64,000 nt of DNA from the NCBI GenBank assembly GCA_041653675.1, contig JBAZEY010000003.1:13284-77283 (forward strand). The letters run 5' to 3'. The notes beneath the pieces are model-generated. The model was not told the DNA's origin. It searched no databases and saw nothing but the letters and a program-made list of their open reading frames with translations. Positions within the stretch are counted from its first letter, which is position 1. Each line of letters begins with the position of its first letter. Positions 1,767-24,116 of this stretch are shown here, in pieces. Made by a program: the position numbers and the translations under genes. The stretch is from Patescibacteria group bacterium. Lineage in GTDB: Bacteria > Patescibacteriota > Patescibacteriia > XYB2-FULL-38-15.

Positions 1767-1831
1767 TTTCTAAATTATTTTAAAATAACATACAGGCCGC
1801 GATATTTTTCACGACTTGTTAGGGGGAAGGT

Positions 1832-2821: not shown

Positions 2822-2979
2822 TTCAATAATTTTATTGATGTCCTCTGATTTTTCGGAGGACAAAATAAGATCGTTGATGTTTCAAAAAACAAAAAACAAA
2901 AATCAAAAGTTATATTTTATTTTCTAGCTTCTCAAGCTTTTGACGTTTGTCTTTTGAGTTTTGAATTTATAGGAGGCGC

Positions 2980-5247: not shown

Positions 5248-5265
5248 TCATTAGATTTATATATT

Positions 5266-7905
5266 ATGAGGAGGATAATTTACACGATCGCCGCAGTTGG
5301 ATTTAGTTTTTTTCTTGGCCATGCCGTCTTGGCCGCTCGTTTTGAATTATCTCCGGCTACAACAGGATTTATTACTGGCTGTGATTCGGCAGTAAACATT
5401 GAAATTAATACCGAGGGAGAAACTTCTGATGCCGCAAATATTTTGATTCATTATAATCCCGCGCAAATTGAAATTGTTGATTCTAATCCCGCAGCGGGTG
5501 GAGTTCAAATAAGAAATGGCAATGCGTATGAAGCATATGCTGATAATATTGTTTTGCCGGCTGAAGGATTGATTCGCTTAACAGGATTTTCTTTTTTGGA
5601 ACAGCTTACCGGCCAGGCTACTTTGGGCACAATTATTTTCCGTCCGCGAGCGGGCGCGGCCGGTACGGACATCACGATAGAATATGTTGCTGGCAGCACG
5701 ACCGATAGTAATGTTGCTGAATATATAACAAGCGATGATCTTTTGACTGGCGTAACAAACGGTTCTTATACCTTCCGCGGCGGTTCTTGCGTGGCTGATG
5801 TCACGCCGCCGAATGTCACAAATCCCGATCCGACGCCAGATGAACATGATGTGCCGCTTGATTCAAATGTTACTTTTGACATTCACGACAGCCAATCAGG
5901 AGTTGATCTTGATACATTAACCATAAATGTTGACGGCGTCGTTTACACGCGAGACGGCGTAAATAGATTTTCTTTTGTCGGGACACCTGAATCGTATGCG
6001 GTAGCAATTAATCCAGATGCGGATTTTACTCCGGGTGCCACGGTTCTTGTAGAAATCAATGCAGCAGATTTATCAGGGAACGCGATGACGGCTTATCGTT
6101 ATATCTTTAATCAGCCGGCTGGACCTCCACTCATTCCGCCATCTTGTGAGGCTCTTGGTTGCGCCGCTCCCGCCGCTTGCACGGCCGAGCCGGTTCTTCC
6201 GGAAGACATTGCAGAGGAACCGACCGTTCCGGAATCACAAGCCCTAGATCTTGAAGATTTTTCTTTTTACGTGGCTGACGGCACCCTCAAAATTTATCCA
6301 ACAAGAAGCGGAGAACTTGTCACTTTATTAAATTCACCGCTTGTCTTTTCTATTTCTGAAAGTAAATTTCCACGTGAAGTAGAAAGGGTCGCTCTGACAA
6401 TGAACGGATTTTCTTACCTTTTGGGTTATAGTGATCAGGCTGACGCGCGGCAAACAACAATTCAAACGCCGCCCGGAGCTGGTCGCTTGGCATTTTCAAT
6501 TTTGATTGATTATATTGACGGAGCCCACGACAGAGTTGATGGGACGCTCAATCTTTTATCTAAAGGTTTTATTTGGCAAGGAACAACAGCCGGTAAATTA
6601 GCCGGAGCTAAAGTAACTCTTTATGAAGAGTACGCCAGCTTCCGCGTTTGGGATGCTGCTCCTTACCATCAAATCAATCCGCAAACAACTGATTCTTCTG
6701 GCCAATTTTCTTTCTTGGTTCCTCCTGGCCGTTATTATTTGCTTGTTCAAAAAGATGGATACCGCGATCAAGCTACTACGGTTTTTGAAATAGCCAACAA
6801 TGTTGTGAATCCTGGCGTGGAAATTCTTGTCGTTCCGCCGACGTTTGCCGAGGTCTGGGATCCGGCTGCGCCAGTCACGGAAAATATTCAGAATGTCGCC
6901 CAAAATATTGGTGAAAAAACAATTTATGCTACCGAAGTTATTCGTAAAGATGTTTTGGATAATCCCGAAGTAGAAAAAACAAATGAAAGCATTGCCGCGC
7001 CGGCCGTGGCCGCAGTGGCAATCGTAAGTTATGGGACAGCGATTTCTCTCGGTTCACTTTTGCCATTTTTACAATTACTTTTTACTCAACCCATCCTTCT
7101 CCTTTTTCCAAAAAGACGAAAAGGCTGGGGCATTGTTTTTCATTCTTTATCAAAAATGCCGGTGGATCTTGCGATTGTCCGGCTTTATGAAAAAGTTACC
7201 GGCCGACTCGTGCAGACTCGCGTTACCGACAAAGAAGGCCGCTTTGCTTTCTTTGTTCAGCCGGGCCAATATTTTATCAAAGTTGTTAAACCGAATTTTT
7301 CTTTCCCGACGGGATATTTAAAAAATAAAAAAGAGGATGTTAAATATTTAGATCTTTATCACGGCGAAGAGATTACAGTGACGGAAAAAAATACGCTTGT
7401 CACACCGAATATTCCGATTGATCCGGTGGAAGCGGAGCGCGGCAAACCGGATAGGAGAATTGTTCTCGCGCATTTTGGCAGAAAAGTTCAAAATGTTGCC
7501 GCCCTCTTGGGAGTTATCTTCGCTGCAATTTCAGTTTTAATTTCTCCAAAACTTTGGATGGTGGGAATTTTGATTGGCCATTGCTTGCTCTACATACTTT
7601 TCCGAAGGCTCGCTCGCAGCAGAAAACCAAAAAGCTGGGGCATTGTTTATGAAACGAAAACTAAAGCGCCGGTCGGCCTTACCGTGGCAAGAATTTTTGA
7701 AACCGAATATAACAAGTTGCTTGAAACTCAAGTTACCGATGGTCGAGGCCGTTACGCGTTCTTGGTTGGAAATAGTTCTTATTATGTGACTTTCAGCAAA
7801 CCGGGATTTTCGCCAAAACGGACGGAAACAATTGATCTCCGCGGAAGAAAAGAAGGAGCAGCAGTGGGATTGGACGTGGGGTTGGACTTAGAAAAAACAT
7901 CATAA
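5266..7905 (+). CDS. Membrane protein: N-terminal cohesin-like domain, Ig-like (Big) domain, three CarboxypepD_reg-like beta-sandwich domains and 2-3 TM segments
   Basis: Signal peptide. FELSPATTGFITGCDSAVNIEINTEGE...ILIHYNPAQIEIVDSNPAAGGVQIRNG follows the cohesin pattern (f.l.YDp..lE.v.v..G). The stretch VTPPNVTNPDPTPDEHDVPLD...TLTINVDG is Ig-like. CarboxypepD_reg-like domains are KVTLYEEYASFRVWD...SSGQFSFLVPPGRYYLLVQKDGY, and a duplicated unit KRRKGWGIVFHS...AIVRLYEKVTGRLVQTRVTDKEGRFAFFVQPGQYFIKVVKPNFSFP versus SRKPKSWGIVYET...TVARIFETEYNKLLETQVTDGRGRYAFLVGNSSYYVTFSKPGFSP. Each unit is preceded by a TM helix. Confidence 0.6.
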   Translation: MRRIIYTIAAVGFSFFLGHAVLAARFELSPATTGFITGCDSAVNIEINTEGETSDAANILIHYNPAQIEIVDSNPAAGGVQIRNGNAYEAYADNIVLPAEGLIRLTGFSFLEQLTGQATLGTIIFRPRAGAAGTDITIEYVAGSTTDSNVAEYITSDDLLTGVTNGSYTFRGGSCVADVTPPNVTNPDPTPDEHDVPLDSNVTFDIHDSQSGVDLDTLTINVDGVVYTRDGVNRFSFVGTPESYAVAINPDADFTPGATVLVEINAADLSGNAMTAYRYIFNQPAGPPLIPPSCEALGCAAPAACTAEPVLPEDIAEEPTVPESQALDLEDFSFYVADGTLKIYPTRSGELVTLLNSPLVFSISESKFPREVERVALTMNGFSYLLGYSDQADARQTTIQTPPGAGRLAFSILIDYIDGAHDRVDGTLNLLSKGFIWQGTTAGKLAGAKVTLYEEYASFRVWDAAPYHQINPQTTDSSGQFSFLVPPGRYYLLVQKDGYRDQATTVFEIANNVVNPGVEILVVPPTFAEVWDPAAPVTENIQNVAQNIGEKTIYATEVIRKDVLDNPEVEKTNESIAAPAVAAVAIVSYGTAISLGSLLPFLQLLFTQPILLLFPKRRKGWGIVFHSLSKMPVDLAIVRLYEKVTGRLVQTRVTDKEGRFAFFVQPGQYFIKVVKPNFSFPTGYLKNKKEDVKYLDLYHGEEITVTEKNTLVTPNIPIDPVEAERGKPDRRIVLAHFGRKVQNVAALLGVIFAAISVLISPKLWMVGILIGHCLLYILFRRLARSRKPKSWGIVYETKTKAPVGLTVARIFETEYNKLLETQVTDGRGRYAFLVGNSSYYVTFSKPGFSPKRTETIDLRGRKEGAAVGLDVGLDLEKTS

Positions 7906-7991: not shown

Positions 7992-10900
7992 ATGTTTAGT
8001 TCAGGAGGAGAAAAACCTAATATTAAATTACCATCCCAAAGCGGAACCAACTTAACTTTGTTGGTGTTTGCTTTGGGTATTTTGTCATTAGCAAGTATTG
8101 GAGTAATGACTCTTTCTGTTGTGAAACAACTTCGGCCGACAGCGTTCACGGCAATTAATAAACAGCTGAACTATCAAGGTAAATTACAAAACGCGGGAGG
8201 CATAACGCTCGCGGACGGAAATTACTCAATGAAGTTTTCCATTTACGACGATCCAACCGTCGGCTCGAGACTTTGGACAGAATGTGGCACAGTCGGTACG
8301 CCGACGGCTCGTACCGTCGCGGTTGCGAACGGGGTTTTCTCGGTGATGCTCGGAGATACAAATTCCAATTCTTGTCCCGGTGGAACGGATTCCAACGCCA
8401 TCACACTGGATTTTAATAGTGACAGTTATTATCTTGGTTTTACCGTGGAGTCCGATTCAGAAATGCTTCCGAGAAAACGATTGGGTGCTTCGGGTTACGC
8501 TTTCAACGCGGATTTATTAGACGGATTTAATACTTCAGCCGCCGGCGGTTCGGTCGCTTTCGTGCCGGTGACGGACGCAAGCGGACATTTAACTTTGACG
8601 CAAAATTTAATTTTGGGTGGAGTTTTAAAAAATGCAGACGGTACTGTCGGCGCGCCGAGCTATACCTTCACGAGCGACCTTGATACAGGACTTTATTATT
8701 CAGCGACACAAATAAATATTGGTGTCGGCGGAAGCACGGTGGCAAATGTAAGCGCTTCGGGTTTAGCCGTAGATACGGTCAAAACTTTAACCGCGACGAC
8801 TTTAACTTTAAAAGGCACGGTTGCCGACGGCGGAACAGCTGTTGGCGCGACGATTGGTTCCAACAGTACTCTTTCTACTACCGGCGCGAAACTTGCTTCC
8901 TTTGTAAACAACACTACTGAGAAAGCATATATAGATAAAGATGGTTATTGGAACGCCCCTAATGGTGCGGCTGGCACTCCTTCAATTACTTTTGCAAATG
9001 ATAAAGATAATGGATTTTTTTATTCTTCCGCTAATAATTGGCGGGCGGTTGCTAACGGAACTGCTATTTTAGAATTTGATGCAAGTGGCATTTATGTTGG
9101 TGGTTCAGGAAACATAGGGTCAGGTAATAATATTACTCTTACTCTTAAGAGTTTTCAGGTCGATGGTGCCGCAAATGTTGCAGTTGCTCAGGATACTTAT
9201 TATGCGTTTGTAACTGCTGGAGCTAAACTTTTTTCTTGGAAAAATCATCAAGTTGAAAAAGCATATGTTGATTATCTAGGCTCGTTCAACGCCGGAGCGG
9301 GGACAAATCTTTTACCAGCGTATTCGTTTGTTGGCGATCCAAATACTGGAATATATAATCCGAGTGCAGACCGTGTAGATTTAGTCGCAGGAGGAACCGT
9401 TCAACTCGCAATAACCTCTGGCACTATTTATTTTGATAATATGAGGGCTTTGAACTTGGTGAGTCTTGGATTAAGAGGGGCGATTGCCGACGGAGCAAGT
9501 GCGATCGGCACAAAAATGGGAAATGCTATAGCTCTTACCACTGCTGGAGCAAAGATTGTAAGTTTTTATAATGATGCTTGGGTAACTGAAAAAGCATATA
9601 TTGATAAAGACGGAAATTTTTATGGCCCCGGGGCAAATTTTTCCGGTCTCTCTGTCTCGTCGGCTGTTTATACCGACGCTTCAAAAAATTTAACTTCTAC
9701 AGCTCCGGCCACGGGCACGATTGGATATTGGTCCCGCGCCACGACAACTTTGTCTCCAGCTACAGCCAATGATATTGTCGCGGTCACCGGCAACTCCGGA
9801 GATCTTTTAACTTTAACTTCAACCGCAACCGGCGCTTCTAACAAAGCTTTAAGTATTGCCGCTTCCGGCGCAACAGTTGGCACAGATTACGGCGCATATA
9901 TTTCAAATACCGGCGCGGCCACAACAAATGTCGGTCTCTACACGACCGCCTCTGGCGCAACAAATAACTACGCTGCGATTTTTGACGCGGGGTATGTTGG
10001 TATTGGTAATACAACTCCAACAGCGTCTTTGACTTTAACTCAGGCTGCCGGCACGACTGGCACTCCCTCAGCTTTTATTATTACGGGGGGTGCTCACACC
10101 GGAATAACTGCGGCGACAGAAGATATTGGGGTGAATTTAAATTTTTCAGCGAATAAAACTTGGGCGGCCGGCGCCGGACCATTGGCCACTCAAAGGGAAG
10201 TCGTGGTTCAAGCCCCAACTTATATTGGTGATGTAGGCGGAGCATTGACCATGACTGATGCGGCGACATTCTATATCTCTGGTGCGCCTACGGCCGGGGC
10301 GAATATGACTATTAGTAATCCGTGGGCATTATGGATTGATGCCGGAAATGTTAGACTAGATGGAAATTTAAAAGTAGATTCACTTTCCGCTTCCTCCGCT
10401 GTTTATACTGACGCTTCCAAAAATTTAACTTCAACCCCGCCTGCTACGGGCGCGATCGGATATTGGTCTCGTACCGGCACGACTCTCTCTCCCGCGACGG
10501 CGAATGATGTGGTTAATGTCGATTCCAATACTGTGGGTGCAGCTATTAGTTCTACGGCGACGAATAGTGGCGCGGTTGCAAACTCTGGCGGTAATTTTTT
10601 GGCTGCCGGAACTAGCGGAGCAATGGGCGTTTATGGTGGCGCGAGCGGCGCTGGCACGGTTTACGGTGTTTATGGCCAAGCTTCTAATCCTGGGGCAGTA
10701 ACAAATTATGGTGTTTATGGAACGGCCGCCGGAGATACGGGCGTCGGTGTTTTTGGCTCTGCTACGGACACTGGCGCAGCTATAAACTACGGCGGTTACT
10801 TTACGGCCGCTGGAACGGGTGGCGCAGTTGGTATTTATAGTGAAGCGACTGGAACTGGCGGTGCGGCTGTTTCCGGTCTAGCTAGTGCTACTACCAGTGC

Positions 10901-13900
10901 TCTTAATTTTGGCGGATATTTTGAAGCAAGAGGTGACCATAGCTGGAGCTTCGGAGTTAAGGGATATCTTCCGAATAGTGTTGACGGTAAGGCAGTAGTC
11001 GGACATGCTGCGGAAACGACATCAACAAATTATGGCGGTTGGTTTCAATCAGATGGCGCAACGGGCATTGGAGTTTATGGTAAATCAACTTATACATCAA
11101 CGGCGACTGTTAATTATGGCGGTTGGTTTAGGGCAGACGGTCTGGCGGGTCGCGGCGTTTATGGCGAAACGACCACTGTGGGAGCAACCATTACTCACGG
11201 CGGCGATTTTTGGGCGGCGAGTACGGGGACAAGTACAAGTGGCGCGCGCGGCGTAGCAACTGGCGCTGGAACGGTTTATGGCGTTGAGGGTCTTGCTCAA
11301 AGTACCGGCGCGGTTACAAACTTCGGCGGCTATTTTACTGCTAGCGGTGAGACTGGCCGCGGCGTTTATGGCATGGCTGACAACACTGCCGTTGCGGCAA
11401 CCAACTATGGCGGTCACTTTACGGCCGCGGGTGCAGGTGCCAACACTACAGGCGTTTATGGTGAAGGCAGCAGCTCCGGCGCGGTTACAAATTATGGTGG
11501 TCGCTTTATCGCTGCAGGTGAAACAGGCATTGGCGCTTATGGCAATGCGACTTCAACTGGCGCGACAGTTAACTATGGCGGAAAATTTTATGCTGGAGGT
11601 TCGGGAGGAGCATACGGCGTCTATGGCGAAGCCAACAATGTTTCCGGAACAAACTATGGCGTCTATGGCAAGGTAACTTCTGGTTATGCTGTTTATGGTG
11701 ACCACGGAACAGTTTTTGGTTATTTGGCTGATAAAAATTATGGAGTTTATGGCCAATACAGCGCGACTCAGTTTGGCTATATAGGCGATTCAACTTATGG
11801 TGTTTATGCCCGTGGGACGATTGGCGTTTATGGAACAGACGGAACAAGATATGGACAATTGGGAACGGGAAGTAATGGTGTGTATGGTTATTATGACGCC
11901 ACGCATTATGGTTATATTGGCGGCGCAACCAATGGTGTGTATGGCACTGGCGGCACAGGCGAAGGCGTGCGCGGCGAAGCAACGACTGGTTATGGCGTTA
12001 TTGGTTTAGCTAGCGATACCGGCGCGGTCACAAATTATGGCGGATATTTTTCAGCGGCCGGCGATACTGGTCAAGGCGTTTATGGAACAGCTCCTGACGC
12101 TGGCGCGGTTATAAACTATGGCGGATATTTCTCTTCCGCCGGTACAGGCACCGGCGCGACCGGCGTCCTTGGCACAACTGCTGCCGCTGGTACGGTTTAT
12201 GGCGTTCAAGGAAAAGCGACGAACACGGGCGCTGTCACAAACTACGGCGGATATTTCTTGGCGTATGGCGACACGGGCCAAGGTATCTATGCCGGTGGCA
12301 TGGATACCGGCGCGGTCACAAATTATGGCGGTTATTTTGAAGCCGCTGGCACAACTGGCCGCGCGGTTTTTGGTGCGGCTCTGGCAACCGGAGCGTCAAC
12401 TGCGTATGGTGGATATTTTACATCGGCAAGTGATACTGGCCGCGGCGTTTATGGCGCAGCGACTGATACCGGCGCGGTTGTAAATTACGGCGGATATTTT
12501 TCTTCTGCCGGCACGGGCACTGGCGCAGCCGGCGTTTATGGCACAAGCGCTGCCACGGGAACGGTTTACGGAGTGCAAGGTTACGCTTCAAACACAGGCG
12601 CTTACGAAAATTATGGCGGTTATTTTGTCGCCAATGGCACAACTAGTCGCGGCGTTTATGGTCAGGCCAATACTTCTGGCGCGACTGTAAGTTACGGCGG
12701 TTATTTTTCATCTTCTAGTACTGGCGCAGGCACAGCTGGCGTTTACGGTATAGGCGCCGGCGCGGGTACGGTTTATGGCGTTACTGGTTTAGCTAGCAAT
12801 ACCGGCGCGGTTACAAATTATGGCGGCGTTTTTTCGGCCGCTGGCACAACTGGCCGCGCGGTGTATGGCGAAGCAAGTAGCTCGGGGGCGACAGCGAACT
12901 ATGGAGGTTACTTTACGGCAGCCGGAACAGGTGGCGCTCGAGGCGTCTTTGGTACTGCCAGCGGTGCGAGCGGCACCAATTACGGAATTTACGGCAGCGT
13001 AACTTCTGCAACAGGCTACGCAGGTTATTTCACCGGCGGTTACGGCGTCTACGCGAGTTTGGCGCATATTGCCGGAACCGGAGCGGGCGGAGAAGAGCTT
13101 GACGTGGAAGGACAAATCCAGTTTGATCTTGATGGTACAACCGATACATTAATTGGTGTTTGTAAAAGCGTGGCTGATGGGGCGGGCGTGGAAGCTGATG
13201 TAGAATTCCGTGATTGTACTTCAACGCCTTCCGATATTGCCGAATGGTATGATACAACTGGCACTGAGGCCGGGGATGTTGTTGCGGCAACCGACGACAC
13301 AGTTACTTTCCAAGGTGAAATGTATGATCCATTAACTGGCTTGCCGCTCGGCACACAAGAAACTATTACGGCAACAATTTTGACTCCCTCATCAGAGCCG
13401 TATCAAAAAACACTCCTTGGCGTAGTTTCTACAAACCCTTATGAATCTTTTGGTAAGGGCGTGATCGATGTTTCACATTTGCCAAATCCAATAGCTGTTG
13501 TTGGCCGTGTGCCAACTAAAGTTTCCACTGAAAACGGCGTCATCCGTCCGGGCGATCCGATTACTTCTTCATCAGTTACCGGCGTGGGCATGAAAGCAAC
13601 TAAACCAGGCATGATTATTGGTTACGCGGTTGATCACTATTCTGGCGCTGGCATTGGAACAGCTTTTGTTAACATTAATCCAGGCTGGCATTCTGGTTTT
13701 GCTATAAATACCGACGGAGTGATTTCTTTATTTGATGATGATTTTACTTTTAATACTTCCGGCATAGCTGATGGAATAATTCAGGGATATAATTCCAAAG
13801 GCTTGGCGTTCCGCGGATCTGGTTGGGACGGTGCCGCGGCGCAAAATATAGAAATGAAAATTGGTAACGTTGTTACGGACGCGTCAAATTATAAATTATC

Positions 13901-15230
13901 AGTTCTAAATAATGCGGGAACCGAAGTAGCTTATCTTGATCAGGCTGGAGCTCTTGGACTTTCTGGGAAATTTTATCCTGCCTCGCCGACTGGCGCGCAG
14001 ACCGACGCTTACATTTTTTATCGCAATAACCGCATTAGAACCAACGCCTCTGGGTGGGCGACCGGTTCATTTGATTTTGCGGAAATGTTTTTATCACGCG
14101 AATTATTAGAAGCCGGCGATGTTGTCATCTTGGATGAAACAACAAATGAGTATGTGAAAAAATCGACCGCGGCTTATGATAAGATGGCGCTCGGCATTGT
14201 TTCCACCGAACCAGGTTTTTTGGCCGGAACTAATGTTAATTTTGATGATCCTTCGGCAGATCAAGGTTATCCGATTGCTTTGGCTGGCCGTGTGCCGACA
14301 AAAGTTTCCGCGGAAAACGGACCAATCAGGCCTGGCGATTTTCTTACGACTTCAACTACTTCTGGCGCAGCCATGAAAGCTACGGAATCGGGCATAATCA
14401 TCGGCACGGCGCTTGAAAGTTTTGATGGCCCAGGAGTTGGTTTAATCAAAGTTTTTGTAAATCTTGCTTGGTACAACGTAACCGGAGACGTGACGCCGGT
14501 TAGTGAAATGTCACAGCTCACTCTTTCTGGTGATTTGAATATGAATGGTAATTACATTTTGAATGTTGGGAAAATTGTCGGACAAGATGAAAAATGGAGT
14601 ATTGATGAAAATGGAATTTTAAAAATTAAATTAATCGCGGAAGACGCGACAGAAAAAGAAATGTTTGGACTTTCTTCGGCCAAAGTGGAACTGACTTTGT
14701 CCGGAACCGACCGGCTGGAAAATGGGACCAAGATGATAGATCTCAGTTTAATTGATCCAGAATTTGTTAAAAATATTTCGGCCGAGACGCCGCTTAAAGT
14801 TGTGGTAACTTTAAACGAACAAGCTTATGGAGTCTACGTTGCTGAAAAAACTGCTTACAGTTTCCGCGTGGCGGAATTGAACGCCGGAACTTCCGACGCG
14901 GCTTTTGATTGGATTGTAATTGCGAGACGAAAAGGCTATGATGATCCGCCGCCGACCGAGGTTGCACCTCCAACCGAACCAGCTCCGGCTCCGAGTGAAC
15001 CGGCACCAGTAGAATCAACTCCGAGTGAGCCAGCGCCAAGCGAACCAGCACCGTCAGAGCCTGCACCTTCTGAACCAATTCCGACTGAACCAGCCCCCGC
15101 GCCAACCGAACCGGTACCAACTGAACCAGCCCCCGCCGAGCCGACTCCTGCGCCGACTGAACCAGCTCCAAGTGAACCCGCACCGGCGCCAACAGAACCT
15201 GCTCCAAGCGAACCGGCTCCGGCAATATAA
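7992..15230 (+). CDS. Giant (2412 aa) N-terminally anchored surface fiber-like protein
   Basis: N-terminal TM anchor (LTLLVFALGILSLASIGVMTL). A conserved domain (LNYQGKL...YYLGFTVESDSEMLPRKRLGASGYAFNADLLDG) is shared with 15415..17829. Two repeats of about 230 aa (SSAVYTDASKNLTST...GYVGIGNTTPTASLTL, tail-fibre-like motif). About 35 repeats of 20 aa (NYGGYF(T/S)AAGxTGxGVYG). A C-terminal module occurs twice (D(I/F)AE(W/M)...GDVV...LG(V/I)VST(N/E)P...AGRVPTKVSxENGxIRPGDxxTTS...AMKAT). Pro-rich PAPSE/PAPTE tail. Confidence 0.8.
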   Translation: MFSSGGEKPNIKLPSQSGTNLTLLVFALGILSLASIGVMTLSVVKQLRPTAFTAINKQLNYQGKLQNAGGITLADGNYSMKFSIYDDPTVGSRLWTECGTVGTPTARTVAVANGVFSVMLGDTNSNSCPGGTDSNAITLDFNSDSYYLGFTVESDSEMLPRKRLGASGYAFNADLLDGFNTSAAGGSVAFVPVTDASGHLTLTQNLILGGVLKNADGTVGAPSYTFTSDLDTGLYYSATQINIGVGGSTVANVSASGLAVDTVKTLTATTLTLKGTVADGGTAVGATIGSNSTLSTTGAKLASFVNNTTEKAYIDKDGYWNAPNGAAGTPSITFANDKDNGFFYSSANNWRAVANGTAILEFDASGIYVGGSGNIGSGNNITLTLKSFQVDGAANVAVAQDTYYAFVTAGAKLFSWKNHQVEKAYVDYLGSFNAGAGTNLLPAYSFVGDPNTGIYNPSADRVDLVAGGTVQLAITSGTIYFDNMRALNLVSLGLRGAIADGASAIGTKMGNAIALTTAGAKIVSFYNDAWVTEKAYIDKDGNFYGPGANFSGLSVSSAVYTDASKNLTSTAPATGTIGYWSRATTTLSPATANDIVAVTGNSGDLLTLTSTATGASNKALSIAASGATVGTDYGAYISNTGAATTNVGLYTTASGATNNYAAIFDAGYVGIGNTTPTASLTLTQAAGTTGTPSAFIITGGAHTGITAATEDIGVNLNFSANKTWAAGAGPLATQREVVVQAPTYIGDVGGALTMTDAATFYISGAPTAGANMTISNPWALWIDAGNVRLDGNLKVDSLSASSAVYTDASKNLTSTPPATGAIGYWSRTGTTLSPATANDVVNVDSNTVGAAISSTATNSGAVANSGGNFLAAGTSGAMGVYGGASGAGTVYGVYGQASNPGAVTNYGVYGTAAGDTGVGVFGSATDTGAAINYGGYFTAAGTGGAVGIYSEATGTGGAAVSGLASATTSALNFGGYFEARGDHSWSFGVKGYLPNSVDGKAVVGHAAETTSTNYGGWFQSDGATGIGVYGKSTYTSTATVNYGGWFRADGLAGRGVYGETTTVGATITHGGDFWAASTGTSTSGARGVATGAGTVYGVEGLAQSTGAVTNFGGYFTASGETGRGVYGMADNTAVAATNYGGHFTAAGAGANTTGVYGEGSSSGAVTNYGGRFIAAGETGIGAYGNATSTGATVNYGGKFYAGGSGGAYGVYGEANNVSGTNYGVYGKVTSGYAVYGDHGTVFGYLADKNYGVYGQYSATQFGYIGDSTYGVYARGTIGVYGTDGTRYGQLGTGSNGVYGYYDATHYGYIGGATNGVYGTGGTGEGVRGEATTGYGVIGLASDTGAVTNYGGYFSAAGDTGQGVYGTAPDAGAVINYGGYFSSAGTGTGATGVLGTTAAAGTVYGVQGKATNTGAVTNYGGYFLAYGDTGQGIYAGGMDTGAVTNYGGYFEAAGTTGRAVFGAALATGASTAYGGYFTSASDTGRGVYGAATDTGAVVNYGGYFSSAGTGTGAAGVYGTSAATGTVYGVQGYASNTGAYENYGGYFVANGTTSRGVYGQANTSGATVSYGGYFSSSSTGAGTAGVYGIGAGAGTVYGVTGLASNTGAVTNYGGVFSAAGTTGRAVYGEASSSGATANYGGYFTAAGTGGARGVFGTASGASGTNYGIYGSVTSATGYAGYFTGGYGVYASLAHIAGTGAGGEELDVEGQIQFDLDGTTDTLIGVCKSVADGAGVEADVEFRDCTSTPSDIAEWYDTTGTEAGDVVAATDDTVTFQGEMYDPLTGLPLGTQETITATILTPSSEPYQKTLLGVVSTNPYESFGKGVIDVSHLPNPIAVVGRVPTKVSTENGVIRPGDPITSSSVTGVGMKATKPGMIIGYAVDHYSGAGIGTAFVNINPGWHSGFAINTDGVISLFDDDFTFNTSGIADGIIQGYNSKGLAFRGSGWDGAAAQNIEMKIGNVVTDASNYKLSVLNNAGTEVAYLDQAGALGLSGKFYPASPTGAQTDAYIFYRNNRIRTNASGWATGSFDFAEMFLSRELLEAGDVVILDETTNEYVKKSTAAYDKMALGIVSTEPGFLAGTNVNFDDPSADQGYPIALAGRVPTKVSAENGPIRPGDFLTTSTTSGAAMKATESGIIIGTALESFDGPGVGLIKVFVNLAWYNVTGDVTPVSEMSQLTLSGDLNMNGNYILNVGKIVGQDEKWSIDENGILKIKLIAEDATEKEMFGLSSAKVELTLSGTDRLENGTKMIDLSLIDPEFVKNISAETPLKVVVTLNEQAYGVYVAEKTAYSFRVAELNAGTSDAAFDWIVIARRKGYDDPPPTEVAPPTEPAPAPSEPAPVESTPSEPAPSEPAPSEPAPSEPIPTEPAPAPTEPVPTEPAPAEPTPAPTEPAPSEPAPAPTEPAPSEPAPAI
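10590..13060 (+). repeat. About 35 tandem copies of a 60-nt / 20-aa Gly-Tyr repeat (NYGGYFxAAGxxGxGVYG) inside the giant gene
   Basis: Highly periodic nucleotide and protein repeat. It generates many spurious antisense ORFs in the six-frame track. Confidence 0.85.
14944..15227 (+). repeat. Pro-rich PAPSE/PAPTE low-complexity tandem repeat encoding the C-terminal tail
   Basis: gaaccagc(a/t)cc(g/a)(a/t)(g/c)(c/t)ga-type repeats encoding APSEPAPSEPAPTEPAPAP. Confidence 0.8.
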
Positions 15231-15282
15231 AAAGAATTGTAAGCGAGTTGTGCCTTCGGGTACGGGCCATAACTCGTATATA

Positions 15283-15316
15283 AGAGCAGCTCCCCACCGC
15301 AAGGTGAGGAGTTGTT
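15283..15316 (+). terminator. Rho-independent terminator after the giant gene
   Basis: Hairpin agctccccacc gcaa ggtgaggag followed by ttgttgtatt. Confidence 0.5.
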
Positions 15317-15401
15317 GTATTATGTTAGATAAAGGGGATCTCGGAAAAATTTAAAATTATATAGTGATACAAACTTGACTAAAGAATTTTTGAGTATTTT
15401 G

Positions 15402-15410
15402 TGGTATAAT
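15402..15410 (+). promoter_or_regulatory. Extended -10 element (TGgTATAAT) for the paralogous surface-protein gene
   Basis: tggtataat sits 4 nt before the track's GTG start at 15415. That start is therefore improbable, and the ATG at 15439 is more likely. Confidence 0.4.
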
Positions 15411-15438
15411 AAATGTGGATAATTTATTTAGTAATCTT

Positions 15439-17829
15439 CATATGTTTGATTACAAAGAAAAAAAGATTTCTCGGCAGCCAAAACGCAGAAAAACAAAATT
15501 GCGCCCTCTGGTTTTAATTTTAGGGATTTTTGCCGTGGCAAGTCTTGGTATTATTGCTATTGCCTTGTTGAAAAATTGGAGTTTTCCAGCTTCCGCAGCG
15601 CCAGGAATTTATAAGGTTTTAAATTACCAGGGAAAATTAGAAGATTCAGGCGGAGTTACGGTAGCTGATGGTGCATACAATATTAAATTTACAATTTACG
15701 ACGCAGCCGCGGCAGGAAATGTCCTTTGGTCTGCCCGAGAATCGGATGCTTGCGGCGCGGCTTTTAATCCTGCGGTAAAATCAGTCACAACTTCGCTTGG
15801 CGTATTCTCTACCCAACTTGGTGAGTCGGGTGATTGTCCGTTGAATTTAGATTTTAATAGTGATTCATATTATCTCGGCATAACCATTGGCGCTGATTCA
15901 GAAATGACTCCGAGAAAACGTATTGGCGCGGCCGGTTACGCTTTTAATGCGGATTTATTGGATGGTTTAACCACCTCTCTGGTCGGCGGCGCCTCTTCTT
16001 TTGTTCCCGCAACTGACGCTTCAGGAAATTTAGTTTTAACCGCCAATGTTACTTTTGACACACCCACTTTTTTTCTTGATTCTACTAATGATAATATTGG
16101 TATTGGTACCATTACACCAACCGCGACTCGTACCCTGGATTTAACGACGGCGAAAAAATATGGCATTTATGCCTCCTCAAGCGCGGCCATAAACCACATG
16201 GCGGTAATTTATGCCGAGGCAACGGACACAACAAACGTTGATCAGATGGGCGGATATTTTTCTTCAGCGAGTCCGAGCGGGAAGGGCGTTTATGGGGCAG
16301 CGGTTACAACGGGAAATCCGCTTGTCGCGAACCAGGGAGGATATTTTACCGCGGCTGGTGATTCGGGGCAGGGTGTTTATGGCGAAGGTTCAGCCTCTGG
16401 CGCTGTGACAAATTACGGGGGATATTTTGTGACACAAGGCGATACAGGATATGCAATTAGGGGCTTGGCTATGGCTACGGGTGGCGTAAACTATGGCGGA
16501 TATTTTAGAGCAAATGGTCCGGGCGGCTATGGAGTTTATGGCTACGCGGCGGATGCAAGTGCAGTGGCAAACTACGGCGGATATTTTACGGCAGCGGGTA
16601 CAGGCGCGGGAACAAGCGGTGTTTACGGTTTGGCATCGGGGGCTGGGGCAGTTTATGGTGTTAGAGGAGAAGTTTCAAACGCAACCGCAGTAACAAACTA
16701 TGGTGGATATTTTACCGCGGCTGGCAGTGGAGCTCTCGCGAGCGGTGTTTACGGAGAGGCTACTGCCGCCGGTTCAGTTATAGGTGTTAGGGGTTATGCG
16801 TCAGACCTTACTGCCGGAATTACAAATTATGGCGGATATTTTTCAGCTCAAGGCGGTACAGCCCGTGCCGTTTTTGGTGATGCCACCAATAATGGAGCAG
16901 AAATAAACTATGGAGGATATTTTACAGCGAGAGGAAGTGCTGTTGGCACCTCTGGAGTTTATGGGGAGGCGAGCGCGTCGGCTGCAGTCTACGGCGTTTA
17001 CGGAAAAGCTACTGACACTGGCGCGGTCGCGAATTATGGCGGATATTTTACTGCGGCTGGCGAGGACGGCGCTGCAGTTTATGGCGCAGCTACATCTGCG
17101 GCTGGCACGGCGAACAATGTAGGCGGATATTTTACGGCGGCGGGAGGTGGCGCAGATGCTTACGGCGTTTACGCTACTGTTACTGGGGGCGGCAACAACT
17201 TTGGTATTTATGCAAGTACGATATCAGCTACTGGCTGGGCTGGGTTTTTTAACGGTGGCAGGGGAATTTACGCTCTTCGTTTTTCAATTAATGACGGCAT
17301 CACCGTGGTTGATTATAATACCATTGGTCCGGCCCTTGCAGGTCACGTTGCGGCAGGAGAAATTACCGATCAGAACGATCTTTTCATTAATGGTAACTTG
17401 GAAGTTGACGGTGCCGTTTGGCTTGATGGTGGGCATACTGATTTGGCAGAAATGGTGGCGTATAGCGGAGAGGGTGAAGCCGGCGATGTTGTTGTGGTTG
17501 ATGAAAATAACGATAACTCGGCAAAGATTGCGGCCAAACCTTATGACCAAAGTATTCTTGGTATAATTTCTACCAAGCCGACATTGGTCATCACGGGTGA
17601 TATCACGGAAGGAAAATTAATGGCCGTAGCCGGCCGCGTCCCAACCAAGGTGACAAATATAAATGGAGCAATTCATCGTGGTGACCCGCTCACAACTTCT
17701 TCTTTGCCCGGTTACGCCATGAAGGCAACTGAAGCAGGGCCGATTGTTGGAAAATCTTTAGGTGAATGTGACCAACAAGAATGCGTCATTTGGGTTTTCT
17801 TAAATGTCAGTTGGTACGGAGGAATATAA
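15439..17829 (+). CDS. Paralogous anchored surface fiber-like protein (about 800 aa)
   Basis: N-terminal TM (LVLILGIFAVASLGIIAIALL). The same post-TM conserved domain (LNYQGKLEDSGG...YYLGITIGADSEMTPRKRIGAAGYAFNADLLDG), the NIGIGTITPTATRTLDL motif, about 15 NYGGYFTAAG repeats, and the shared C-terminal module (DLAEMV...LGIISTKP...AGRVPTKVTNINGAIHRGDPLTTS...AMKAT). Confidence 0.75.
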   Translation, partial: HMFDYKEKKISRQPKRRKTKLRPLVLILGIFAVASLGIIAIALLKNWSFPASAAPGIYKVLNYQGKLEDSGGVTVADGAYNIKFTIYDAAAAGNVLWSARESDACGAAFNPAVKSVTTSLGVFSTQLGESGDCPLNLDFNSDSYYLGITIGADSEMTPRKRIGAAGYAFNADLLDGLTTSLVGGASSFVPATDASGNLVLTANVTFDTPTFFLDSTNDNIGIGTITPTATRTLDLTTAKKYGIYASSSAAINHMAVIYAEATDTTNVDQMGGYFSSASPSGKGVYGAAVTTGNPLVANQGGYFTAAGDSGQGVYGEGSASGAVTNYGGYFVTQGDTGYAIRGLAMATGGVNYGGYFRANGPGGYGVYGYAADASAVANYGGYFTAAGTGAGTSGVYGLASGAGAVYGVRGEVSNATAVTNYGGYFTAAGSGALASGVYGEATAAGSVIGVRGYASDLTAGITNYGGYFSAQGGTARAVFGDATNNGAEINYGGYFTARGSAVGTSGVYGEASASAAVYGVYGKATDTGAVANYGGYFTAAGEDGAAVYGAATSAAGTANNVGGYFTAAGGGADAYGVYATVTGGGNNFGIYASTISATGWAGFFNGGRGIYALRFSINDGITVVDYNTIGPALAGHVAAGEITDQNDLFINGNLEVDGAVWLDGGHTDLAEMVAYSGEGEAGDVVVVDENNDNSAKIAAKPYDQSILGIISTKPTLVITGDITEGKLMAVAGRVPTKVTNINGAIHRGDPLTTSSLPGYAMKATEAGPIVGKSLGECDQQECVIWVFLNVSWYGGI
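16240..17260 (+). repeat. NYGGYF 20-aa tandem repeat region of the paralog
   Basis: Same period and consensus as 10590-13060. Confidence 0.8.
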
Positions 17830-17850
17830 AATTAAAAAATATTTTAGTAA

Positions 17851-17888
17851 AACTCCTCATCTTTTGGTGGGGAGTTTTTGTTTTTTGG
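17851..17888 (+). terminator. Rho-independent terminator
   Basis: aactcctcatcttttggtggggagtt followed by tttgtttttt. Confidence 0.55.
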
Positions 17889-17929: not shown

Positions 17930-18059
17930 TAATTGTAAAATTAGAGATGGAGATTAAGTGAAATTTGCTTTAAAATAAAGGATAAAGCCAATTTCAGGTG
18001 ACCTTCAACTTTTGGAGAACAACCGTTCCGCGAGAGGGCGGAACAAGGAGGATTTAGTG

Positions 18060-18665
18060 ATGAAGACGACGATGATCGCGATGGTGCTTGTTTCCGTGTT
18101 CGCGACTGGCTGCTGGGATAGCTACCAGAACTACGGCGAAGACACTTCGCCCCTCGCGACTTGCGAGGTCGAGGTGACGACGAACGTGGTCGAGGTGGTG
18201 ATCACGGTGGACGGCGTCGTGATCGGTGGCGTTGCGGAACTCGCGACGGGCATGCACACTTTCGCTGCTACGGCTCCCGGGTATTACCCGGCAAGCGTGG
18301 TTGCGGAAGTAACCGAAGCATGCGCTCCGGTCGAACTCCAGCTCTTCCCGGATCTCGCCGGTGACTACGATCTCGTGCTACACAATAGCATCTATGATCG
18401 GCTGCTGCTCCACCTCGACCAGGATGAGGAAGGCAACCTCGTCGGCTACGACTGGTACACTGATGATCCGGGACACAGCTTCCAGGATTTCACCGGCACT
18501 GTTTCGTTCGATGGAGAAGTTCATCTCCTCTCGGACGATTCGGTCCGGCTGAATCTCACTGGCCGCTGGACTCCTCCGGGAATTGGTGGCGTCAGCCGTA
18601 TCGTCGGCAACTGGACCTCCGCTGCGGGAGGCGACGGAGACTGGCTCGCCGAGTCGCGACCGTAG
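18060..18665 (+). CDS. GC-rich lipoprotein with a PEGA-like domain
   Basis: RBS AAGGAGG 10 nt upstream. Lipoprotein signal MKTTMIAMVLVSVFATGC. The segment VVITVDGVVIGGVAELATGMHTFAATAPGYYPAS fits the PEGA pattern. About 60% GC against a roughly 40% background. Confidence 0.6.
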   Translation: MKTTMIAMVLVSVFATGCWDSYQNYGEDTSPLATCEVEVTTNVVEVVITVDGVVIGGVAELATGMHTFAATAPGYYPASVVAEVTEACAPVELQLFPDLAGDYDLVLHNSIYDRLLLHLDQDEEGNLVGYDWYTDDPGHSFQDFTGTVSFDGEVHLLSDDSVRLNLTGRWTPPGIGGVSRIVGNWTSAAGGDGDWLAESRP

Positions 18666-18676
18666 GTTACGACTCG

Positions 18677-18736
18677 AACCGGCATCTGGCAGAAATCGTG
18701 AAGAACGATTCTGTCGGATGCCGGTGTTTTTATTTC
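18677..18736 (+). terminator. Long imperfect hairpin plus T-run; copy 1 of a duplicated 58-nt element
   Basis: ccggcatctggcagaaatcg tgaagaa cgattctgtcggatgccgg followed by tgtttttatttc. Near-identical to 20278-20336. Confidence 0.6.
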
Positions 18737-18834
18737 AGAAAATCTAAAGAAGCACGCCTTGACTTTTGAGACATAATATATATGATAACGGCATAGATGG
18801 TCGGCTAGAGGTAGCCGACACAAGGAGGAGAAAG

Positions 18835-20184
18835 ATGAAAAAGGGGAACGGAAGGATCAAGGGGCTCTTTTTGATCGTCATCGCGACGATCGCGATTCTC
18901 GCCTATGCCGCTTGTGGCGACGACGAGCAGTTGTGTCCCAGCGCAGGGGACTGCATGGGACGGGAGTGCGGGCCGGATCCGGTTTGCATGACATCGTGCG
19001 GTGCATGCTCAATCGGAGAAGCATGTTCGGCGGACGGGATATGTATGCCGGACTGCGTGTCCAACTGCGCCGGCCGCGAGTGCGGATGGGACCCGGTCTG
19101 CGGCAACATGTCTTGCGGGACATGCCCGGCGGATCGGCCCAACTGCAATGCCACTACGGGGACTTGTTCGACTGATGGCCCGGATTGTCCGGCAGACCGC
19201 GACTGCGCCGGCCGCGAGTGCGGCCTCGATCCAATCTGCAGCGTTTCCTGCGGGACGTGTTCGGGCGGTGAGACGTGCAGTTCATCAGGAAGATGTGTTT
19301 GCGCTCCCAACTGCTCCGGCCGCGAGTGTGGGCTTGACCCAGTTTGTAGCGTCTCCTGCGGGACGTGTTCAAGCCCAGAGACATGCACTCCATCTGGAAC
19401 GTGCAACTGTACCAGGAACTGCGCCGGCCGTGAATGTGGTCCCGATCCGATTTGTGGCGTTTCCTGCGGCTCGTGTTCAGCTGGCTCATGCACCACGACG
19501 GGCACGTGCACCACGTGTTCATCCGGCGCAACGGAGTCGTGCGCCAATCTTTGCGGTTCGGCTGGCACGCGGAGTTGTAGTGTTTCGGGCGAATGGGGGC
19601 GGTGTCAGGGTGGGACTGCTCTGGTTCCTGTGGCTCTTACGGATGACACCTACATCGACAACGACCCCCCAACTGTCAACCACGGAACCGAAGAATTCGT
19701 GATCATAGGAAAGGGCGTTGCCGCTGACCCACGTCGCCTAGCATTCTTCCGTTTTGATGCGGATTTGGATACGTGGCGGGCGGAGGGCGCCACGTCGATA
19801 ATTCAGGCCGACCTGAGCGTATACGTGAGTGACCGCTTAGGCAGTCAACTTGAACTCTATGGTCTCTCAAATACGACCGGTGGTACTTGCGTGTGGAATG
19901 AAGATACACTGACGTATTACACCCAAGTCACCGCAGGAAGCACGAACTGCTATCCGGACCCGCTTGGCTGGGTCTACCCCGACATTTCGATGATTGTGGA
20001 TTACTCGATGGGCTACGTGGATATCACGGCGTATGTCCAGTGGCTTTGGGACGGCGCGGAGAACGACGGCTTCATGTTGACGAACAATTCGGGGAGTTCC
20101 ACTCCGTTTGCACGGTTGATTATCAACAGCACCGAGAATTCCCGGGATCCACCGAGCGTTTTGGTGAGAGTATCCTGCGAATAG
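18835..20184 (+). CDS. GC-rich secreted/lipoprotein: about 7 Cys-rich repeats (C..GRECG.DP.C..SCG.CS) plus a C-terminal DNRLRE-like domain
   Basis: RBS AAGGAGGAG. Signal LFLIVIATIAILAYAAC. Repeats such as DCAGRECGLDPICSVSCGTCSGGETCSSSGRC. The C-terminal domain carries the DNRLRE-family landmarks (DDTYIDNDPPTVNHG..., RLAFFRFDADL, WNEDTLTYYT, VDITAYVQWLWDGAENDGFML, INSTENSRDPPSVLVRV). Confidence 0.6.
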   Translation: MKKGNGRIKGLFLIVIATIAILAYAACGDDEQLCPSAGDCMGRECGPDPVCMTSCGACSIGEACSADGICMPDCVSNCAGRECGWDPVCGNMSCGTCPADRPNCNATTGTCSTDGPDCPADRDCAGRECGLDPICSVSCGTCSGGETCSSSGRCVCAPNCSGRECGLDPVCSVSCGTCSSPETCTPSGTCNCTRNCAGRECGPDPICGVSCGSCSAGSCTTTGTCTTCSSGATESCANLCGSAGTRSCSVSGEWGRCQGGTALVPVALTDDTYIDNDPPTVNHGTEEFVIIGKGVAADPRRLAFFRFDADLDTWRAEGATSIIQADLSVYVSDRLGSQLELYGLSNTTGGTCVWNEDTLTYYTQVTAGSTNCYPDPLGWVYPDISMIVDYSMGYVDITAYVQWLWDGAENDGFMLTNNSGSSTPFARLIINSTENSRDPPSVLVRVSCE

Positions 20185-20277
20185 CAGGAGAGCGGGCCGT
20201 GGACGGATTGTCTTAGCCCTCAGTACATAGATCGACGGGTGGCTGAATCTGGGTAGCCGAGTCACGGACGTGACCTA

Positions 20278-20336
20278 AACCGGCATCTGGCAGAAATCGC
20301 GAAGAACGATTCTGTCAGGTGCCGGCATTTTTTATT
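20278..20336 (+). terminator. Copy 2 of the duplicated hairpin-terminator element
   Basis: ccggcatctggcagaaatcg cgaagaa cgattctgtcaggtgccgg followed by cattttttatt. Confidence 0.6.
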
Positions 20337-20435
20337 ATAGAATTTTTCTTGACTTGATTTTTATGCTATAATTACTTAATTAATTTAACCGCTTATCCCC
20401 TAAAGTGAGTCTTTTGGGGAAAGTAAAACTTAAAT

Positions 20436-22787: not shown

Positions 22788-22852
22788 AAATTATTGACAA
22801 AATTATAACTTGTTGTAATCTAGGATAATCTCCCGCTCAGATTTTTGGACTT

Positions 22853-22926
22853 GGGCCTATAGTATAGTAGTAAAACGCCTCCATGGCATGGAGGAGTCGA
22901 GGGTGCGATTCCCTCTAGGTCCACCA
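22853..22926 (+). tRNA. tRNA-Ala (anticodon GGC), encoded CCA, atypical D-arm
   Basis: Acceptor GGGCCTA/TAGGTCC with G3:U70. Anticodon stem CCTCC/GGAGG with loop ATGGCAT. T-arm GAGGG TGCGATT CCCTC. Discriminator A plus CCA. The D-arm pairs poorly (GTAT...AAAC, and the loop has no GG). Confidence 0.55.
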
Positions 22927-22979
22927 GAAACTTGAGCGGGAGGTTTTGTCTAAAAATTTAAGAGGTAGATTATTAAATT

Positions 22980-24074
22980 ATGTCCTTCAAAGTCGGAATT
23001 GTTGGCCTGCCAAACGTTGGTAAATCAACCCTTTTTAAAGCGTTGACCAGAAAGCAAGTAGACATCGCCAACTATCCTTTTTGTACTATTGAACCAAATG
23101 TTGGTACGGTTGCCGTGCCCGATTTTCGACTGCAAAAATTGGCCGATTTATATAATTCCGCGAAAATTGTTCCGACTGTAATTGAATTTGTTGATATAGC
23201 CGGATTGGTAAAGGGTGCGCATGAAGGTCAGGGCTTGGGCAATAAATTTTTATCGCACATCAGAGAAGTTGATGCCATTTGCCAGGTAATCCGGGCGTTC
23301 GAAGATCCAAATGTTATTCACGTTGACGGAAAAATTAATCCAATTTCCGATTTAGAAGTTATAAATTTAGAATTAATTTTTGCCGACCAGGATTCAGTGA
23401 AAAAACGTTTGTCGAGTTTAGCCAGTGAGCTCAAAGGCTCGAAGGAAAAAATGCTGGTTAAAACAAATGAGACGGTTTTGAAAATTAAAGAAGGGCTGGA
23501 AAAAGGAATTATGGCCTCGAAGCTCGGCCTTAGTGAAGAAGAAAAATTTTTAGTTAAAGAATTGAATTTATTGACTCTGAAGCCGGCACTTTATGCCTTA
23601 AACGTGGCTGAGGCAGACACCAAGGCCGAGAAAAAGGAAATTTTAGAAAAATTTAAGTTGGCGCTCGATCCGGAAAAAGTGATTTTGGTTTCAGCAAAAA
23701 TTGAGTCAGAGGTAGCGGAATTGCCGCCCGAAGAAGCAAAAAATTATTTGAAAGAATTAGGGGTAGAGGAATCGGGTTTAGATAAATTAATTCGGGTGAG
23801 TTATCATGAATTAAATTTAATTACCTTTTTTACGGCTGGGCCGAAAGAAGCGCACGCTTGGACGATTATTCGGGAAACTTTGGCGCCGCAGGCTGCCGGA
23901 AAAATTCATTCTGACTTTGAGCGCGGTTTTATCGCGGCAGAAATAATTAATTGGAAAGATTTGCTGGACGTCGGAGGCGATGTGAAAGCCAAAGAAAAAG
24001 GATTGATTCGCCTGGAGGGTAAAGAATACGTGATGCAAGATGGCGATGTGGTTGAGTTTAGGTTTAGCGTATAA
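22980..24074 (+). CDS. ychF: Ribosome-binding ATPase YchF (Obg-family GTPase)
   Basis: GIVGLPNVGKSTLF P-loop, and a TGS-like C-terminus (VMQDGDVVEFRF). Confidence 0.9.
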   Translation: MSFKVGIVGLPNVGKSTLFKALTRKQVDIANYPFCTIEPNVGTVAVPDFRLQKLADLYNSAKIVPTVIEFVDIAGLVKGAHEGQGLGNKFLSHIREVDAICQVIRAFEDPNVIHVDGKINPISDLEVINLELIFADQDSVKKRLSSLASELKGSKEKMLVKTNETVLKIKEGLEKGIMASKLGLSEEEKFLVKELNLLTLKPALYALNVAEADTKAEKKEILEKFKLALDPEKVILVSAKIESEVAELPPEEAKNYLKELGVEESGLDKLIRVSYHELNLITFFTAGPKEAHAWTIIRETLAPQAAGKIHSDFERGFIAAEIINWKDLLDVGGDVKAKEKGLIRLEGKEYVMQDGDVVEFRFSV

Positions 24075-24079
24075 TAAAA

Positions 24080-24110
24080 AAATTCCTCGCTGTCTTGCGA
24101 GGAATTTTTA
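24080..24110. terminator. Bidirectional hairpin terminator between ychF and the methyltransferase gene
   Basis: attcctcgctgtcttgcgaggaat followed by ttttat. Confidence 0.5.
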
Positions 24111-24116
24111 TAATGA

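Follow-up and report, generated by a model that had tools for sequence, protein, structure and literature searches.

The window analysed here is a stretch of 64,000 nucleotides (nt) from a Patescibacteria group bacterium (GenBank assembly GCA_041653675.1, contig JBAZEY010000003.1, positions 13,284 to 77,283 of the forward strand), and the coordinates given below are positions within it. Two same-strand open reading frames (ORFs) that had been singled out from the letters of the DNA, in what we call the sequence-only reading, were found again in our ORF list as neighbouring genes on the forward strand: gene A (7992..15230), which encodes a fibre protein of 2412 amino acids (aa), and gene B (15442..17829), which encodes its 795-aa paralogue. 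Both proteins carry a conserved N-terminal domain, a long shaft of Gly/Tyr repeats, and one or two copies of a module of ~135 aa, and it is the nature of this module, and with it the likely role of the two proteins as phage-fibre-like surface fibres, that concerns us here.

Protein A, taken from the ORF list and its translation, matches exactly MFA5413208.1 at NCBI (P0021 among our homologues), a hypothetical protein from a 'Patescibacteria group bacterium' metagenome-assembled genome (MAG) with an identical entry in NCBI, JGI and ENA, and its nearest relative (P0022) is from Candidatus Falkowbacteria. The mechanical ORF of gene B starts at a GTG (15415-17829, 804 aa); the ATG at 15442, which yields the 795-aa protein, is backed by the gene call on the ENA contig and by an orthologue (P0173) beginning 'MFE...'. 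The alignments bear out the earlier claim that B is a paralogue of A that keeps the N-terminal domain, the repeats and one module, the best of them joining B aa 230-803 to A aa 1277-1902 at 40.5% identity (E 3e-117) and another joining B aa 15-613 to A aa 7-673 at 29%. That the repeats might be an artefact of collapsed or expanded reads, a caution attached to the sequence-only reading itself, is scarcely credible, and we reject it. TRF detected no array of near-identical DNA copies across the Gly/Tyr region, and since the repeat copies are only 60-80% identical at the DNA level they are not a product of assembly; moreover, the reading frame is uninterrupted across 7.2 kb, an independently assembled ENA contig encodes the identical protein, and orthologues of 1894-2953 aa have the same architecture.

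Protein A begins with a hydrophobic segment at aa 21-44 (8052..8123; the top 19-aa window starts at aa 21, Kyte-Doolittle 2.39) that could serve either as a signal anchor or as a long signal peptide. The type-II-like anchor first proposed stands as a hydrophobic segment, but homologues often have a canonical A-x-A site immediately before the N-domain, and so the 'type-II anchor' may be a long cleavable signal peptide. The segment is followed by the conserved, beta-rich N-domain at aa 55-190 (8154..8561; LNYQGKL...NADLLDG) and by a stalk of ~110-aa units at aa 191-552 (8562..9647; GAKLxSF...EKAYIDKDG), recognised by phmmer with the linker described below and by reading the sequence. The two long repeats beginning SSAVYTDASKNLTS (aa 553-775 and 798-1041; 9648..11114) are real, with 36.7% identity by BLASTP (E 1e-33) and, at the DNA level, 76% identity over 131 nt (family D10), but GYVGIGNTTPTASLTL, which had been ascribed to both, occurs only once in A (aa 667); the second repeat continues into the Gly/Tyr array. 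This array forms the shaft at aa 861-1700 (10572..13091), as delimited by autocorrelation and a listing of units.

Beyond the shaft lie module copy 1 (S/DIAEW..., the slash marking the boundary) at aa 1745-1896 (13224..13679), a G2-like chaperone barrel placed by hidden Markov model (HMM) domain coordinates and motif; a linker domain of ~130 aa at aa 1897-2023 (13680..14060; phmmer against 150 representatives); module copy 2 (F/DFAEM...) at aa 2024-2158 (14061..14465), the copy used for AlphaFold2 (AF2), Foldseek and hhalign; a C-terminal beta-sandwich domain (...FDWxVxAxRKGY) at aa 2159-2310 (14466..14921; conservation and AF2); and the Pro-rich PAPSE/PAPTE tail, correctly described before, at aa 2311-2412 (14922..15227; translation, and TRF periods of 15/36 nt with 66-84% matches). 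In all, 254 aa of A lie after module copy 2. The linker (aa 1897-2026) matches the stalk at aa 254-344 and 485-554 by phmmer. Just before the cleavage-type boundary of module 1 (13120-13223, A aa ~1711-1744) there are two cysteines (GVCKSV..., ...FRDCTS), which could possibly form a disulfide.

Protein B has its hydrophobic segment at aa 30-53 and, in the 804-aa numbering, a MAT_N-like N-domain at aa 63-200 (15601..16014; 58% identity to that of A in alignment A3, with family matches to NF053851), a Gly/Tyr shaft at aa 276-640 (16240..17334; unit listing), and module copy 3 (T/DLAEM...) at aa 672-804 (17428..17826; motif and identity), its extreme C-terminus, which is also where classical intramolecular chaperones sit. 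The module is therefore used three times, as had been claimed; the description of it as C-terminal holds for the B copy, whereas both A copies are internal. Module 1 of A and the module of B share 43% and 44% identity, respectively, with module 2.

When A and B were scanned whole with the Pfam, NCBIfam and PHROGs models, no match rose above threshold, and phmmer of protein A against the PDB gave no match. The module had been judged not obviously a known family, and as far as Pfam, NCBIfam and PHROG models go, none of which it matches at threshold, this is correct; hhalign and Foldseek, however, link it to phi29 gp12 and Peptidase_G2. When a profile of the three copies and 19 homologues was compared with the PDB, phi29 gp12 was the sole match (6qz9, 3gqh; E 0.049), with the D-x-A-E of the module aligned onto the DFAE of gp12, and it is with this aspartate, number 692 in gp12, that the released C-terminal fragment crystallised as 3gqh begins. 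We took nine gp12-type C-domains from a phage collection, aligned them, and compared them with the module alignment by hhalign, which matched the two over their full length (query 4-141, template 13-193) with a probability of 90% and an E of 1.6e-6. Weak matches to PF11962 (Peptidase_G2) were seen in 4 of 22 members of the module family, and there was a sub-threshold Pfam match of the module to XM1_gp53_minor_capsid.

The model obtained by AF2 from the module alignment (predicted local distance difference test, pLDDT, 87.8) shares the fold of 3GQH/3SUC, Foldseek against the PDB retrieving 3suc/3gqh at E ~5e-4 with template modelling (TM) scores of 0.60-0.66. The same search also found trimeric capsid cement and decoration proteins, its top match being the capsid cement 8hdt_G; such proteins are trimers with beta-tulip folds, according to a review (PMC7602432). 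In BFVD, the compact form of the module was found in phage proteins (E 1e-11, TM 0.75-0.78, ~30% identity), some of which are named tail fiber or preneck appendage protein. On these profile and model comparisons, the module is a distant, compact member of the phi29 gp12/Peptidase_G2 auto-chaperone superfamily with a beta-tulip-like barrel.

The likeness to the phi29 gp12 C-domain (PF11962, 3GQH, 3SUC) extends beyond the full-length profile alignment and the fold. The boundary motif reads DIAE, DFAE and DLAE in the three copies, and its D, A and E are kept in ~97% of 343 copies where the columns align; the two domains also share GxxS, G-x-[VI]-x-x-[KR]-[VI] and GD motifs and the last beta-strand, and both follow a fibre or spike shaft, the B copy being C-terminal. 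Asp and Glu reportedly have catalytic roles in gp12. Its C-domain is an auto-chaperone that is cut off once the trimer has folded (PMC3357383). Unlike the gp12 domain, the module occurs on exported cellular proteins and, in A, twice and internally within a conserved cassette. The decoration and cement proteins (Pam3 8HDT, TW1 gp56 5WK1, the phi29 gp8.5 base 6QYY, XM1 gp53) have the same barrel fold as the module, but they bind capsids, occur outside fibres, lack the D-x-A-E boundary motif and are farther from it in sequence than gp12 is; the module is part of exported proteins of 0.8-2.4 thousand amino acids (kaa) in a chromosomal surface-protein cluster, not a stand-alone small protein beside capsid genes. 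The sequence-only reading had counted a match to a characterised domain as grounds for abandoning it. Such a match is what Foldseek and hhalign provide, but given that the domain is a fibre-folding chaperone, the fibre reading is strengthened by it, not weakened.

Against NCBIfam NF053851 (Bdello_MAT_N), 13 of the 14 members of the N-domain family gave a match, the best with an E of 1.5e-10 and A alone with 5e-5, while its profile found no meaningful sequence relative in the PDB. By this profile similarity the N-domain is a distant homologue of the cell-proximal N-domain of the mosaic adhesive trimer (MAT) fibres of Bdellovibrio. MAT fibres have a signal peptide, an invariant beta-rich N-domain of ~130 aa thought to lie at the cell surface, and a trimeric shaft that ends in an S74 chaperone or another tip (PMC10769870). 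The MAT fibres of Bdellovibrio bacteriovorus are cellular, exported and phage-fibre-like, as A and B appear to be, and share with them the ~130-aa beta-rich domain directly behind the signal sequence, where sequence homology is detected, a long repetitive shaft and mosaic evolution. Most members also end in a self-processing chaperone, but this is S74 (SDxxxK) in the MAT fibres and G2-like in A and B, neither of which matched PF13884 (S74) in a Pfam scan. The shaft repeats differ as well, as do the variable tips of MAT fibres and the conserved distal cassette of A, and the hosts are Bdellovibrio on the one hand and, on the other, a member of the Candidate Phyla Radiation (CPR) with a Gram-positive-like envelope.

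The Gly/Tyr array had been described as ~35 copies of a 20-aa repeat in A, and on both counts our analysis differs. Autocorrelation peaks at 27, 42 and 69 aa, and the unit (consensus NYGGYFxAxGxxGxGVYG...) is 27 aa long, or 42 aa where one GxVYGV rung has been added, the two forms alternating in a 69-aa super-period; we count ~21 units in A and ~10 in B, and aa 1194-1347 of A are a distinct zone of short YGVYG repeats. Querying with 219 aa of the array retrieved 86 proteins of 140-384 aa (mostly 200-380) with NYGGYFxAxGxxGRGVYG units, of which the few with a named source are from Planctomycetes, Nitrospira and WOR-1. Their C-terminal end is Peptidase_S74 (PF13884) in 18 of the 86, by precomputed annotation, and the module in 21, by our own HMM; none has both. 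Given that module and S74 alternate behind one shaft, the module sits in the slot of a proven chaperone. The trimerise-then-self-cleave action of S74 is established (PMC8326128, PMC10769870), and in the cellular MAT fibres of Bdellovibrio its self-cleavage has been shown experimentally (PMC10769870). Peptidase_S74, known from endosialidases, the T5 L-shaped tail fibre and MyRF, is thus like the module in position and presumably in job, but the two are unrelated in sequence and fold, S74 having a serine-lysine dyad and the module Asp/Glu. Some Gly/Tyr-shaft proteins (P0185, P0191) end in a third domain (...GPFTGAHEV...G[LI]IV...), neither S74 nor G2-like, which may be a further alternative chaperone or tip.

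The distal part of A is conserved as a unit. Full-length phmmer matches to the linker were found at the same position in many of the 150 representatives, and the C-terminal beta-sandwich domain is kept in 65 of the 150; since both are conserved together with the modules, they define a cassette of ~570 aa consisting of module, short stalk, module and beta-sandwich. The AF2 model of the C-terminal domain has a pLDDT of 79 (core >90), and Foldseek returned weak, partial matches to the Pam1 tailspike C-terminal domain (E 1e-3), R-pyocin fibre tips and depolymerase C-termini, a modelled kinship to tailspike and pyocin-fibre tips that is suggestive only; the profile of the domain found no meaningful sequence match in the PDB, and Pfam scans of the domain family gave scattered noise. 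Among the closest orthologues (1894-2953 aa), identity amounts to 79-85% in the N-terminus and to 74-79% in the cassette, whereas the stalk and Gly/Tyr shaft are only 42-58% identical and differ greatly in length. Judging from these identities, evolution has been mosaic, with constant ends and a variable middle.

The module family is large. An exhaustive HMM search returned 30,668 cluster representatives (50% identity) at E<=1e-3 and 25,080 at E<=1e-10, and it was this search that brought in the giant relatives, a simpler homologue search with the module or the N-domain having given short proteins only. The best 150 of the 30,668 representatives are mostly proteins of 1-5.7 kaa with an N-terminal hydrophobic segment, and mostly have two modules spaced 130-140 aa apart and a C-terminal extension of ~250 aa. 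In a pattern-based scan of one genome per species, with at least 571 confirmed loci, the matches listed belong almost all to CPR lineages (Uhrbacteria, Levybacteria, Nomurabacteria, Saccharibacteria, WWE3, Peribacteria, Doudnabacteria and others), and one Woesearchaeota and one Ignavibacterium are listed as well. Among 2.9 million viral contigs, a scan limited by pattern confirmed only three module loci. By sequence, the module has its closest relatives mainly among CPR bacteria. On one of the viral contigs (L091) the module ends a 396-aa ORF, and PHROG scans of its neighbours were uninformative as to context.

Two further observations concern the carriers. DPANN archaea, the archaeal counterpart of the ultrasmall episymbionts, also have the module (P0001 from Nanoarchaeota, L020 from Woesearchaeota), which hints at transfer or a shared need. 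Many module-bearing small-genome MAGs are titled 'uncultured Gammaproteobacteria', among them four complete chromosomes or near-complete single contigs of 0.9-1.6 Mb (OZ246416.1, 886 kb; OZ246394.1; OZ246395.1; CAZDOJ010000001.1), and in one of the four (L011) the module is 87% identical to the Patescibacterial one described here; these titles are probably taxonomic mislabels of CPR genomes.

Given these relationships, we think it fairly probable that A and B are exported surface fibres of a phage-fibre-like build, probably trimers, in which the modules nucleate folding of the trimer and probably cleave themselves off, and the extended surface fibre of the sequence-only reading finds support in the MAT-type N-domain, the origin in a Patescibacteria (CPR) MAG, and the occurrence of shaft and module in phage-fibre-type proteins. 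The hydrophobic segment near the N-terminus and the exported products of neighbouring genes likewise speak for a place on the cell surface. In the mechanism we propose, A and B, built like phage tail fibres and Bdellovibrio MAT fibres, would be exported from the Patescibacterium by the Sec route, and the conserved beta-rich N-domain would hold the fibre at the cell surface. Three copies of the module would join into a barrel-type trimer, which would set the register and nucleate folding of the shaft N-terminal to it, after which the module would probably cut itself off at the conserved boundary just ahead of D-x-A-E. In B, self-cleavage before D676 would free the last ~130 aa and leave the mature fibre, while in A the cassette might either mature in two steps or stay as the distal end or as structural knobs.

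Several points weigh against this reading. The module scores only 12.1-12.4 bits against Pfam PF11962, with a cut-off of 25, at an E of 0.1 and over profile positions 50-99 only; the hhalign probability was 90%, not 99%, and both alignments were shallow (effective number of sequences, Neff, ~3). At ~135 aa the module is also shorter than the gp12 C-domain (~165 aa), having no counterpart of a ~50-aa insertion in gp12, and the structure predictions are single-chain models of single domains. The N-domain matches lie below the 60-bit cut-off, at 23 bits for Bdello_MAT_N, and A aligns to profile positions 8-78 of 162 only. Two modules out of three sit inside the chain, which is not the case in any cleaved chaperone that has been characterised, and it is the distal cassette that is most conserved, contrary to what would be expected of a variable receptor-binding tip. 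Finally, gp12 cleavage is said to need ATP, and as ATP is not available outside the cell, an ATP-dependent mechanism would be implausible for an exported fibre.

Some of these points would be accommodated if the module were a permanent trimerisation knob, a beta-tulip barrel that is never cleaved, with the cassette as the functional distal end and D-x-A-E as a structural motif. The top Foldseek match is, after all, a capsid cement protein, many of the further matches are non-cleaving trimeric decoration proteins, Pfam gives the weak match to XM1_gp53_minor_capsid, two of the three modules have further conserved domains behind them, and conservation is highest in the cassette. However, the sequence-level signal favours gp12 over the decoration proteins, D-x-A-E lies exactly on the N-boundary of the module, the site at which gp12 is cut, and B, like most of the small homologues, ends with the module, in the position that S74 takes elsewhere. 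We therefore regard an uncleaved knob as possible, if on the unlikely side. A different question is what the fibres are for, and here they might be envelope or S-layer-like components or spacers rather than host adhesins. The genes lie within a cluster of exported, structural-looking proteins, variation affects mainly the length of the shaft and not the tip, and neither Pfam nor Foldseek on the C-terminal domain found a lectin or receptor-binding domain with confidence; on the other side, both the phage relatives and the MAT fibres (PMC10769870), the nearest characterised relatives from cells, are adhesins, the C-terminal domain bears a weak likeness to the tips of tailspikes and pyocin fibres, and the module has its relatives concentrated in lineages of episymbionts (CPR, plus single matches in Woesearchaeota and Nanoarchaeota), and a purely structural role seems to us quite unlikely.

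That A and B are the tail-fibre genes of a prophage or tailocin residing in a CPR genome had also to be considered, since the module, the shaft repeat and a GIGT motif are all found in phage proteins. The surrounding DNA is chromosomal, with housekeeping genes (YchF, a class II aminoacyl-tRNA synthetase and FtsK) downstream, and A and B are flanked by genes for exported proteins that have fn3, CarboxypepD_reg, Big_5 and CBM96 domains. Out to ~32 kb we found no phage structural or replication genes, whether by Pfam (ten flanking ORFs) or by PHROGs (seven nearer ones), in scans that covered 681-7905, 18012-25358, 26677-27723 and 30097-32316, window ORFs beyond 32316 lying outside the scan. Both proteins, moreover, carry an N-terminal export or anchor segment and a cellular MAT-type N-domain, and the three confirmed loci in the pattern-limited scan of viral contigs compare with at least 571 in genomes. 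A prophage origin is accordingly very improbable, and we reject it.

If A and B are surface fibres of the kind we favour, attachment to a host cell is a plausible function by analogy, and it fits both the lineage (CPR) and the relatives. To our knowledge, the cultivated Patescibacteria all live attached to other microbes. Host binding in CPR bacteria has so far been tied to type IV pili alone (PMC9894109, PMC12206443), and a full-text literature search on CPR surface proteins and attachment did not find 'tail fiber'. It is clear from the locus that large phage-fibre-like proteins, probably displayed at the surface, are encoded in CPR genomes as well, with building blocks that can be named: a MAT-type N-domain, a Gly/Tyr shaft common to S74-capped fibres, and a compact G2-type chaperone module. 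Because cellular phage-type fibres with self-cleaving chaperones are already known from Bdellovibrio, this is not a new principle; but since the module family is huge and yet missed by Pfam, NCBIfam and PHROG, a model of its own would provide an annotation for tens of thousands of giant proteins now labelled 'hypothetical'. As a conjecture, and an unlikely one, the double-module cassette could be a CPR-typical maturation or tip device of phage-derived fibres in which ATP-free, stepwise extracellular self-cleavage arms or releases the distal piece, with the fibres mediating host recognition beyond type IV pili; were this true, phage receptor-binding proteins, the MAT fibres of predatory bacteria and the attachment organelles of CPR would belong to one evolutionary family.

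The arrangement around the two genes adds some detail. Directly after the stop codon of A, the A-B spacer (15231-15441) holds a GC-rich hairpin, CTCCCCACC-GCAA-GGTGAGGAG, which suggests that A and B are separate transcription units; a promoter scan found no canonical sigma-70 promoter for B, upstream of which there is a TTGACT...TATAAT pair with an overlong spacer. Just 3' of gene B there is a terminator-like hairpin (17849..17878, forward strand) of 13 pairs followed by a T-run.

Upstream, at 60-5247, lies a cluster of exported proteins; taken with A and B, it has the look of a gene cluster for a surface structure. Within it, ORFs 681-1766 and 2980-5247 have a common N-terminal motif behind the signal peptide, SS[IV][ST]DTL[ST]R.K.S...NH, ORFs 60-650 and 681-1766 are alike at their ends (...STG[RT]F), and ORF 1832-2821 combines a signal peptide with a membrane anchor at its C-terminus. 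Downstream of B, the stretch 18001-20184 is an island of 58% G+C in a window of ~43% G+C, possibly acquired horizontally, whose ORFs encode a lipoprotein-like protein (18012-18665) and a protein with a Cys-rich N-terminus and a CBM96 domain (18766-20184; E 1.4e-10). The window encodes tRNA-Ala(GGC), tRNA-His(GTG) and tRNA-Arg(TCT), at 22853-22926 and 52130-52288, and beyond these it matched no Rfam family, rRNA included.

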